From the sequence record ON210139.1: DNA of 64,000 nucleotides. The stretch is one strand, 5' to 3'. Source of the DNA: Escherichia phage EC128. Both the position numbers and the translations under genes were made by a program. The notes beneath the pieces were generated by a model. That model worked only from the letters and a program-made list of their open reading frames with translations. It did no database searches and was not told the DNA's origin. Of the stretch, positions 2,699-4,838 are shown one piece after another (within the stretch, counting starts at the first letter, position 1; every line of letters starts with the position of its first letter).

Positions 2699-3032
2699 AA
2701 TTTTGGTTTTATGTGTAGGATTAATTTCATTTTCTGCGTTAGCAGATATATCATATTCTGAAGTTAGAGAGTATGTAAACCGTACTGCCGCGGATTATTG
2801 TGGGAAAAATAAAGCATGCCAAGCTGAATTTGCGCAGAAATTAATATATGCATATAAAGACGGAGAAAGAGATAAATCAAGCAGATATAAAAATGATACA
2901 TTGTTAAAACGATATGCTAAAAAGTGGAATACTTTAGAATGTTCAGTTGCGGAGGAGAAAGATAAAGCCGCTTGTCATTCAATGGTTGACCGTTTGGTAG
3001 ATTCTTATAATCGAGGATTGAGTACTAGATGA
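2691..3032 (+). CDS. secreted small protein
   Basis: 113 aa with signal peptide MTKILVLCVGLISFSALA. Confidence 0.5.
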   Translation: MTKILVLCVGLISFSALADISYSEVREYVNRTAADYCGKNKACQAEFAQKLIYAYKDGERDKSSRYKNDTLLKRYAKKWNTLECSVAEEKDKAACHSMVDRLVDSYNRGLSTR

Positions 3033-3508
3033 TTGTAAAATATATCAAGGGCGATATTGTCGCCCTATTTCTTCAAGGTAATATTATTGCGCACGGGTGT
3101 AACTGTTTTCATACTATGGGTTCAGGTGTAGCGGGTCAATTAGCAAGGGCCTATCCTAAAATTTTAGAAATAGATAAAACCACTACCGAGTACGGTTCTC
3201 GTGATAAATTAGGCGATATGTCTATTGTTTTTAAACATAATCCTACAGGATTTGGTATATGCTATAACCTGTATACACAATACGAACCGGGTCCTAATCT
3301 TGATTATGGTGCTTTAGTAAACTGCATGATAGAATTAAATCTACAGGCAGAGACTCTTTTGTTTAAACCAGTAATTTACATTCCACGCATAGGTTGTGGT
3401 ATTGCTGGCGGCGATTGGGATAAGGTTTCTAAATTAATCGACATGTTTACTCCTGATATTGATTTGATAGTGGTGGATTATGAAAGTACATTACCCGCAT
3501 CCGTTTGA
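3029..3508 (+). CDS. macro-domain (ADP-ribose binding/processing) protein
   Basis: motifs HGCNCFHTMGSGVAGQLA and PRIGCGIAGG. Confidence 0.55.
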   Translation: MIVKYIKGDIVALFLQGNIIAHGCNCFHTMGSGVAGQLARAYPKILEIDKTTTEYGSRDKLGDMSIVFKHNPTGFGICYNLYTQYEPGPNLDYGALVNCMIELNLQAETLLFKPVIYIPRIGCGIAGGDWDKVSKLIDMFTPDIDLIVVDYESTLPASV

Positions 3509-3692
3509 TCCTAAAAACAAAGCGGAAATTATTCGTCAATGGGAACGCATTTGCCGTACTAAATGCCCAATTAATAGTCCTCATGATGTAGATAAAGACT
3601 ATATTGGAACATTCGTTGAATATACCTTTATTGATAGGAAAGGTCGTAAACAACATGTAGAAGAATATTGCTTAAAGGTTACATGGTTATGA
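3480..3692 (+). CDS. hypothetical protein
   Basis: 70-aa ORF, overlaps upstream gene end. Confidence 0.5.
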   Translation: MKVHYPHPFDPKNKAEIIRQWERICRTKCPINSPHDVDKDYIGTFVEYTFIDRKGRKQHVEEYCLKVTWL

Positions 3693-3895
3693 GCCAAACT
3701 AGTATTCTTAAAAATGCCCATTGTGAAAATTGTAAATGGCCTGTTGTTTTTGCTTTATGTAATGATGAAATGGCCTGTGATTTTGACTATTGGTGCTATT
3801 GTTCTAATAAAGGATGCATCAATCATAAAGGTGAAGGATTTTATTCAGGATTTTATCCTTATCCTGATTTCGTTAAAGAAGGTAAACCAAAATGA
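3689..3895 (+). CDS. Cys-rich small protein
   Basis: CENCKW...CNDEMAC...CYCSNKGC; ATGA overlap. Confidence 0.45.
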   Translation: MSQTSILKNAHCENCKWPVVFALCNDEMACDFDYWCYCSNKGCINHKGEGFYSGFYPYPDFVKEGKPK

Positions 3896-4065
3896 ATAAT
3901 TTTGAGTTACAATATGAAGTGTTACGTGAACTTGATAATTTAATTGAACTCGCTGTTAATAAAGGTTTTGCCATTGGAATTGGTCAAAAAGATACTGATC
4001 ATTTAACTATGGAAATATTTAAGCAAAAACGAATTATTTTAAAACTTCTGGAAATTAATATATGA
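3892..4065 (+). CDS. hypothetical small protein (57 aa)
   Basis: hand-translated, not in track; ATGA overlaps at both ends. Confidence 0.35.
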   Translation: MNNFELQYEVLRELDNLIELAVNKGFAIGIGQKDTDHLTMEIFKQKRIILKLLEINI

Positions 4066-4247
4066 GTCTGAGCAAAGAACAAAAAGATAAATTGTTTGAG
4101 CTTATCCATGAACTTCTAGATGAGCATACAGAAGTAAACACCTTTTATGATGAATACGGCCCGCTATCTCCCGAACAGCAAGAAGAATTTGCTGACCGGT
4201 TTGATAAGAAAGAAAACGAATTAATAGCTTATGTGAATACGCTTTAA
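4062..4247 (+). CDS. hypothetical acidic protein
   Basis: 61-aa ORF. Confidence 0.5.
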   Translation: MSLSKEQKDKLFELIHELLDEHTEVNTFYDEYGPLSPEQQEEFADRFDKKENELIAYVNTL

Positions 4248-4256
4248 GAAGGTGAT

Positions 4257-4838
4257 ATGGCGAGTTTAATTTTTACTTATGCGGCAATGAATGCTGGAAA
4301 ATCTGCTTCTCTTTTGACTGCTGCACATAATTATAAAGAACGCGGAATGAGTGTATTAGTTCTTAAGCCTGCTATTGATACTCGCGATTCTGTCTGTGAA
4401 GTCGTTTCTCGCATTGGAATTAAGCAGGAAGCGAATATTATTACGGATGATATGGATATTTTTGAGTTCTATAAATGGGCTGAAGCACAAAAAGATATTC
4501 ATTGTGTATTTGTAGATGAGGCCCAGTTTTTAAAAACTGAACAGGTGCATCAATTAAGCCGAATTGTTGATACATATAATGTTCCTGTTATGGCTTATGG
4601 GCTAAGGACTGATTTCGCTGGAAAATTATTTGAAGGTTCTAAAGAACTTTTAGCGATTGCAGATAAACTTATTGAACTAAAAGCAGTTTGTCATTGCGGC
4701 AAAAAAGCGATTATGACAGCTCGATTAATGGAAGATGGAACACCAGTTAAAGAAGGTAATCAAATCTGTATTGGTGATGAAATTTATGTTTCTTTGTGTA
4801 GAAAACATTGGAATGAATTAACTAAAAAGCTCGGTTAG
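4257..4838 (+). CDS. tk: thymidine kinase
   Basis: P-loop NAGKSASL, zinc site CHCGKK, 193 aa. Confidence 0.9.
   Translation: MASLIFTYAAMNAGKSASLLTAAHNYKERGMSVLVLKPAIDTRDSVCEVVSRIGIKQEANIITDDMDIFEFYKWAEAQKDIHCVFVDEAQFLKTEQVHQLSRIVDTYNVPVMAYGLRTDFAGKLFEGSKELLAIADKLIELKAVCHCGKKAIMTARLMEDGTPVKEGNQICIGDEIYVSLCRKHWNELTKKLG

Follow-up and report, generated by a model that had tools for sequence, protein, structure and literature searches.

The window analyzed here, a stretch of 64,000 nucleotides (nt) from Escherichia phage EC128 (sequence record ON210139.1), represents a Tequatrovirus (T4-like) genome in reversed orientation with respect to the T4 reference. Directly downstream of the gene vs it carries an open reading frame (ORF) for a macrodomain protein, which is the subject of this study. 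The 3-kb stretch surrounding the ORF reveals 98-99% identity to many Escherichia and Shigella phages, and the gene order regB, vs.1, vs, macrodomain gene, tk.3 ... tk is the same as in T4. At the corresponding place T4 harbors tk.4 (NP_049723, 155 amino acids), for years annotated as 'phosphatase; contains A1pp phosphatase motif', and the two proteins share 58% amino acid identity over 155 residues (E=1e-70). By position and by sequence homology, the ORF is a member of the T4 Tk.4/AdfM orthologous group. Neither a macrodomain gene at this place nor a role for it against DarT is new, as the T4 counterpart was annotated and genetically characterized before; our interest lies in the allele, its active site and its relatives. 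The features discussed below are collected in Table 1.

As a first-pass annotation of the sequence had claimed, the ORF is real and extends from ATG to TGA on the plus strand. Both macro-like motifs named there are present as well, GSGVAGQ at residues 31-37 and PRIGCGIAGG at residues 119-128. However, the spacing reported as N-x6-GSGVAGQ is one residue off: the closest Asn upstream is N25, and the actual arrangement is N-x5-GSGVAGQ. The classical macro signature N-x6-[GS]-G-V is satisfied from the same N25. The Pfam Macro profile (PF01661; gathering cut-off 22 bits) matches the protein with 33.1 bits (E=5.8e-8) over profile positions 2-117 of 118, and PHROG 335 matches with E=1.6e-71. Homologues were detected by tblastn in 2,777 of 50,697 phage records, and chance cannot account for this similarity. 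The protein is acidic, with an isoelectric point (pI) of 5.03.

Table 1. Features of the EC128 window referred to in the text (positions count from the first letter of the window).
Feature	Position	Strand	Basis and remarks
Macrodomain gene, tk.4/adfM-type, single-domain, 159 aa	3029..3508	+	ATG 3029, TGA 3506-3508
ATGA overlap, tk.4 start / vs stop	3029..3032	+	'agATGAttg'; vs ends 3032, tk.4 starts 3029
8-bp GC-rich hairpin followed by U-rich run	3048..3066	+	Terminator-like scan, RNA fold
Substrate-binding loop 1, H22-G-C-N25-C ... G31-S-G-V-A-G-Q37	3092..3139	+	Family alignments
Gln84 codon, at the position of TARG1 catalytic Lys84	3278..3280	+	Profile alignment, residue counts
Phosphate-binding loop, P119-R-I-G-C-G-I-A-G-G-D-W130	3383..3418	+	Family and TARG1 alignments
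Variable island between vs and tk: divergent tk.4, tk.3, three small ORFs	3061..4260	+	Identity to T4
Small ORFs differing from T4 tk.2/tk.1	3668-3895, 3892-4065, 4062-4247		PHROGs 2306, 3452, 653, unknown function
modB, ADP-ribosyltransferase, 207 aa	52607..53230	+	95% identical to T4 ModB; PHROG 832, 6.4e-41
modA, RNA polymerase alpha ADP-ribosyltransferase, 200 aa	53227..53829	+	99% identical to T4 ModA; PHROG 832, 1.4e-33

A structural model was built with AlphaFold2 from a 104-sequence alignment from which the T4 sequence had been left out. The model reached a predicted local distance difference test score (pLDDT) of 94.1 and a predicted template modeling score of 0.89; it superseded a single-sequence model, which was unusable (pLDDT 33.9). 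The protein model shows the three-layer alpha/beta/alpha fold with a central mixed sheet. Foldseek returned TARG1 as the best match (E=4e-10, TM about 0.72-0.80), and its set of neighbors agrees with the other structural and profile searches. The figures listed for the model were 18.1 for BT1257, 17.3 for the macrodomain of M. tuberculosis DarG, 17.2 for Poa1p, 16.5 for TARG1 and 16.3 for T. africanus DarTG, while viral and MacroD-type domains remained at or below 13.8. When the family profile was run against the sequences in the PDB, it recovered BT1257 (2e-19), TARG1 (2.6e-16), SCO6735 (2e-15), and DarG (3.5e-11). The nearest neighbors in structure and sequence are therefore TARG1, DarG, SCO6735/BT1257, and Poa1p, not MacroD- or PARG-type domains, and the protein belongs to the ALC1/TARG1-like macrodomain class. 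Thus, the macro-domain call of the first-pass annotation is borne out by both sequence profile and fold, the structure prediction proposed there as a check having led to macrodomain neighbors. Characterized enzymes of this class remove thymine-linked ADP-ribose (PMC9411070).

Twelve residues are invariant among 105 homologues: H22, G23, N25, C26, G33, A35, D49, N80, Y82, Q84, P119, and W130. G127 and G128 of the phosphate loop are invariant or nearly so in the family. Q84 is conserved throughout the 105 family members and, in addition, in 80 bacterial relatives. In the profile alignment to TARG1 the motif 'NlYtQ' pairs with 'YLITK', such that Q84 falls on Lys84 and A126 on Asp125; the Lys84/Asp125 catalytic dyad of TARG1/OARD1 (PDB 4J5R/4J5S) is thereby replaced by Gln84/Ala126. 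BT1257 has a Gln at the position aligned with Q84. The equivalences to residues of SCO6735 and DarG were obtained via the TARG1 and BT1257 alignments and via published structure-based correspondences: Gln85 of SCO6735, which shares 54% identity with BT1257, is equivalent to TARG1 K84 and DarG K80 (PMC9411070). Judged by the position in the H-x-x-N motif, H22 and N25 would correspond to His24 and Asn27 of SCO6735, and N25 matches the Asn that was exchanged in the N23A variant of PhiKZ AdfM (PMC13309987). For SCO6735 these residues have been probed on DarT-modified DNA, where the Q85A variant was inactive and N27S nearly inactive; the wild-type enzyme cleaves the thymidine-ADP-ribose made by DarT faster than either DarG or TARG1 (PMC9411070).

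The protein thus shares with SCO6735/BT1257 (PDB 5E3B, 2FG1, 2AFC) the Gln-type site, the loop-1 His and Asn and the Gly of the phosphate loop. It differs from them in the mobile loop, whose extension by five residues over DarG/TARG1 is said to be the hallmark of the SCO6735/BT1257 subclass and which in SCO6735 bears Lys89 and Lys94. Q84 and Y92 are separated by 7 residues in the EC128 protein and in TARG1, as opposed to 13 in BT1257 and 10 in most bacterial relatives. By position, S32 takes the place of SCO6735 Lys34, and the pI of 5.0 contrasts with 8.4 for the BT1257 fragment. With TARG1, in turn, the protein has the short 7-residue loop and the PRIGCG...W motif in common. The EC128 protein consequently combines a short mobile loop with an active site of the Gln type.

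DarTG stops phage replication by ADP-ribosylating phage DNA, and functional evidence for the family stems from T4. A T4 mutant lacking adfA and adfN remains resistant to DarTG2, such that a further factor was to be expected (PMC11825919). In a T4 transposon library grown on DarTG2-expressing E. coli, tk.4 alone emerged as a significant hit and hence as conditionally essential, and a clean tk.4 knockout turned DarTG2-sensitive; the gene was renamed adfM, for anti-DarT factor Macrodomain, and the authors of the study proposed on genetic evidence that its product enzymatically strips ADP-ribose from DNA (bioRxiv 10.1101/2025.11.20.689424, November 2025). Reversal of DarT-type toxins, one of two roles suggested by the first-pass annotation, hence has direct genetic support from screen and clean knockout as far as the T4 counterpart is concerned.

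We consider it likely that the EC128 ORF encodes a stand-alone macrodomain ADP-ribosylglycohydrolase of the Tk.4 (AdfM) family, an 'orphan antitoxin', and we infer the same activity and target for this allele as for T4 Tk.4. Early expression is probable, since regB, vs, and tk, known as early genes in T4, are encoded on the same strand. According to the proposed mechanism, host DarT2 would ADP-ribosylate thymidines in single-stranded phage DNA at TNTC motifs and block replication. The phage protein would then take the ADP-ribose into its cleft and hydrolyze the thymine-ribose bond, which would restore normal DNA and let replication continue. As the site formed by H22, N25, Q84, and G127/G128 is of the Gln type of SCO6735 and not of the Lys type of DarG/TARG1, catalysis would probably proceed by substrate positioning and water: Asn25 would hold Gln84, which in turn would position the distal ribose, and a water molecule would do the chemistry, with no Lys nucleophile involved.

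It is conceivable, though quite improbable, that DarT2 is neutralized mainly by binding of the toxin rather than by hydrolysis. The catalytically dead variants SCO6735 Q85A, DarG K80A, and TARG1 K84A all inhibit DarT in vitro, with SCO6735 being the strongest (PMC9411070). However, the C-terminal domain by which DarG binds DarT is absent from the EC128 protein, whose match is confined to positions 2-142 of the 338 in the DarG model, and the strict conservation of H22, N25, and Q84 argues for catalysis.

Several observations weigh against an assignment as DNA ADP-ribosylglycohydrolase. The genetic evidence was obtained with the T4 allele, whose protein shares just 58% identity with the EC128 protein and carries GKGN instead of AGGD in the phosphate loop. 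Where DarG and TARG1 have their catalytic Lys, the EC128 protein has Gln84, and it scores weakly, with 28 bits, on DarG models. It also lacks the extended mobile loop of SCO6735/BT1257, whereas SCO6735 holds DNA with its Lys-bearing loop. Finally, its N-terminal half closely resembles Poa1p, an ADP-ribose-1''-phosphate phosphatase, which makes a small-molecule substrate possible.

The resemblance to Poa1p leads to the alternative that a soluble ADP-ribose derivative is processed, be it ADP-ribose-1''-phosphate, O-acetyl-ADP-ribose or an ADP-ribose-based immune signal. H22 aligns with Poa1p His23 and T29 with Ser30, residues probed in PDB 6LFS/6LFT, and both proteins contain H-x-C-N-C; the legacy name 'A1pp phosphatase' refers to the first of these candidates. 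The strong part of the match, however, is mainly in the N-terminal half and comprises only residues 3-79, followed by a weak second stretch, and the annotation names had been transferred by homology. Moreover, the sole known phenotype of T4 tk.4 is specific for DarTG2, which modifies DNA, and would be left unexplained. We therefore regard a soluble substrate as improbable.

Divergence from T4 is concentrated in the variable island between vs and tk. Nucleotide identity to T4 amounts to 98% in regB and vs.1 and 96% in vs, drops to 66% in tk.4, and recovers to 90% in tk.3 and 98% in tk; the three small ORFs next to tk.3 share 24-53% with the tk.2/tk.1 region of T4. The break in identity lies about 30-90 nt into tk.4. 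Between the two tk.4 genes, the nonsynonymous and synonymous substitution rates are dN 0.38 and dS 1.35 (dN/dS 0.28), as compared to a dS of 0.09-0.14 in the flanking genes. Because of this contrast in dS, combined with the low ratio, the EC128 gene is an allele of old standing, kept under purifying selection and brought in by recombination, rather than a gene evolving fast in place. Escherichia phage FL33 encodes a protein 100% identical to that of EC128. The allele of the EC128 type is found in 312 phage records (at least 90% identity), and the T4-type allele in 224 records at the same threshold, with 159 further records at 80-90% identity to T4.

Both Tk.4 proteins are members of PHROG 335 and have H22, N25, Q84, P119, and W130 in common. 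They differ in the phosphate loop at residues 126-129, which reads A-G-G-D in the EC128 protein, in accordance with the family consensus, and an unusual G-K-G-N in T4 Tk.4. A-G-G at 126-128 occurs in at least 90% of the family and D129 in 80%, while Lys127 is found in only three of the 105 homologues. In addition, the C-terminus of the EC128 protein is four residues longer (159 versus 155 amino acids) and its gene overlaps tk.3 by 29 nt.

Two alleles of this kind raise the question of whether they share a target. The protein might remove base-linked ADP-ribose placed by a DarT2 variant other than the E. coli toxin tested with T4, or uracil-linked ADP-ribose in RNA, with T-even alleles differing in specificity. 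Both alleles are old, common, and exchanged by recombination, as would suit such a division. Uracil-ADP-ribose in RNA is cleaved by SCO6735 and TARG1 (PMC13036486), and T-even AdfA alleles are known to differ in the DarT1 they neutralize (PMC11825919). On the other hand, the catalytic and ligand-binding residues are equal in both alleles except for loop 126-129, and since a hydrolase works on what the toxin has produced, the identity of the toxin should matter little to it, as was argued for AdfN (PMC11825919). A shift of target is in our view about as doubtful as a soluble substrate.

The tandem ADP-ribosyltransferase genes that the first-pass annotation reported far downstream exist and correspond to ModB and ModA, matching PHROG 832 ('RNA polymerase ADP-ribosylase'). 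Its further idea, that the macrodomain edits phage-made ADP-ribosylation, here taken as the marks set by Alt, ModA, and ModB on host proteins, did not find support and is the least probable of the readings considered here. To be sure, both transferases are encoded in the same genome. The marks of Alt, ModA, and ModB are arginine-linked ADP-ribose, while the characterized activities of the macrodomain class are directed to Glu/Asp esters and to thymine or uracil bases; none of the characterized enzymes TARG1, DarG, and SCO6735 is known to us to hydrolyze arginine-ADP-ribose. Some protein-linked ADP-ribose is nevertheless accepted by SCO6735 and TARG1 (PMC9411070), which would speak for the idea. 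Macrodomain and mod genes, however, have unlinked histories: their protein identities to T4 differ (58% versus 95-99%), indicative of a separate recombination event. Macro domains are also common in myoviruses, being present in about 41% of them, with or without ADP-ribosyltransferases (PMC9503650).

Bacterial genomes, one for each species, were scanned for relatives, and 80 loci were obtained, none of them above 44% identity (loci L002-L081, alignment A3). The genes stand alone and have a median length of about 152 amino acids. All 80 retain Q84, N80, and Y82, none of which was part of the search pattern. Their neighborhoods are heterogeneous, with 127 Pfam families over 131 flanking ORFs. 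DarT is absent from the 25 most frequent families among these ORFs (each with at least two ORFs), a count that a lone occurrence could escape; the eight long upstream ORFs that were scanned separately code for rpoC, ileS, metH, and similar genes, and none is DarT. Heterogeneous neighbors without a recurrent DarT argue against a recent origin from a DarTG operon.

In Hyphomicrobiaceae and Jannaschia, the relative is located directly downstream of the isoleucyl-tRNA synthetase gene on the same strand, and in Ruegeria downstream of rpoC. A link to aminoacyl-tRNA synthetases, echoing the phage gene vs (valyl-tRNA synthetase modifier), was considered and dropped, because the bacterial synthetases are isoleucyl enzymes by NCBIfam rather than valyl-tRNA synthetases and because at further loci the upstream gene is rpoC or metH. 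The adjacency is probably an ordinary housekeeping context and a coincidence. As a separate observation, NAPRTase/NAMPT-family enzymes account for four neighbors of bacterial macrodomain genes, and the N-terminal domain of phosphoribosyl pyrophosphate synthetase for two, which hints that some of the genomes link them to salvage or reconstitution of nicotinamide adenine dinucleotide, or that the contigs derive from prophages.

At its 5' end the EC128 gene is tightly packed against vs. The ATGA start-stop overlap, identical in length (4 nt) to that between vs and tk.4 in T4, suggests that both genes are co-transcribed and translationally coupled. In the promoter scan, sigma-70-like sites did not rise above shuffled sequence (19 versus 21.2 expected). 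Twenty nt into the tk.4 coding sequence we found the hairpin AGGGCGAU-AUU-GUCGCCCU and after it a U-rich run. It falls within positions 3001-3060, a stretch 100% identical to T4, and is labeled a rho-independent terminator in GenBank record OL631480; the local fold z-score at the hairpin is only -1.6. The hairpin could act in transcription attenuation after vs or in mRNA stabilization. Farther along the variable island, the first of the small ORFs is rich in Cys (CENCKW...CYCSNKGCINH) and may encode a zinc-ribbon-like protein.

For phage biology, the allele carried by a therapeutic or model phage helps to foresee which strains with DarTG2 it can infect. T-even phages protect themselves in layers, with AdfA, with AdfN, a NADAR enzyme directed at DarTG1, and with the Tk.4-type macrodomain directed at DarTG2. 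Our own additions are modest: a Gln-type site with a short loop, the distance from DarG described below, the lack of a recurrent DarT neighbor, and old, recombining alleles. They bear on the cleavage of base-linked ADP-ribose without a Lys nucleophile and on independent acquisitions of 'orphan antitoxins', and leave the published basic picture unchanged.

From DarG (PDB 5M3I, 5M31, 7OMU), the antitoxin of DarTG2, the EC128 protein departs in three respects. Catalytic Lys80 of T. aquaticus DarG is replaced by Gln, the C-terminal DarT-binding domain is not present, and instead of being paired with an adjacent darT the gene is flanked by vs and tk.3. Its scores on DarG models are low. On the PADLOC model PDLC02990 the protein obtains 27.7 bits and T4 Tk.4 36, as compared to 132.9 for PhiKZ gp104; the NCBIfam equivalog NF048014, with a cut-off of 250 bits, gives 27.8 bits and is covered only at model positions 2-142 of 338.

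PhiKZ gp104, which strips DarT2-made ADP-ribose off DNA in vitro and was likewise named AdfM (PMC13309987, Cell Reports 2026), is akin to the EC128 protein in being a single phage macrodomain of about 160 amino acids with an acidic pI (5.05) and the conserved loop-1 Asn, and in countering DarTG2, the role proposed for the EC128 protein. Since gp104 is that acidic, a pI of 5.0 is no argument against a DNA substrate. However, gp104 is a protein close to DarG, with a Lys-type 'FPTK' motif, and reaches only 31 bits on the Tk.4 family profile. MAFFT misaligned the central region of five distant sequences, and alignment to the family hidden Markov model was used instead; gp104 is offset there by two columns at FPTK, so the equivalence of its Lys to Gln84 rests on the motif. 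Because gp104 resembles DarG and has a Lys-type site, whereas Tk.4 is of the Gln type with a low DarG score, the two proteins represent separate branches within the macrodomain class. The name AdfM was thus given to different proteins by two groups (PMC13309987; bioRxiv 10.1101/2025.11.20.689424), and a function carried over by name alone could mislead.

Tentatively, and with clearly less confidence than we place in the ADP-ribosylglycohydrolase assignment itself, the comparison can be extended to an evolutionary proposal. Rather than a DarG antitoxin captured by phages, T-even AdfM may constitute a separate, Gln-type ALC1-like branch with a trimmed DNA-clamping loop, derived from stand-alone bacterial genes and functionally convergent with the Lys-type PhiKZ AdfM. 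Its old AGGD and GKGN alleles, which recombination passes around among T4-like phages, would then act on different substrates or against different toxins, the EC128 allele, for example, on other base-linked marks such as uracil-ADP-ribose in RNA.

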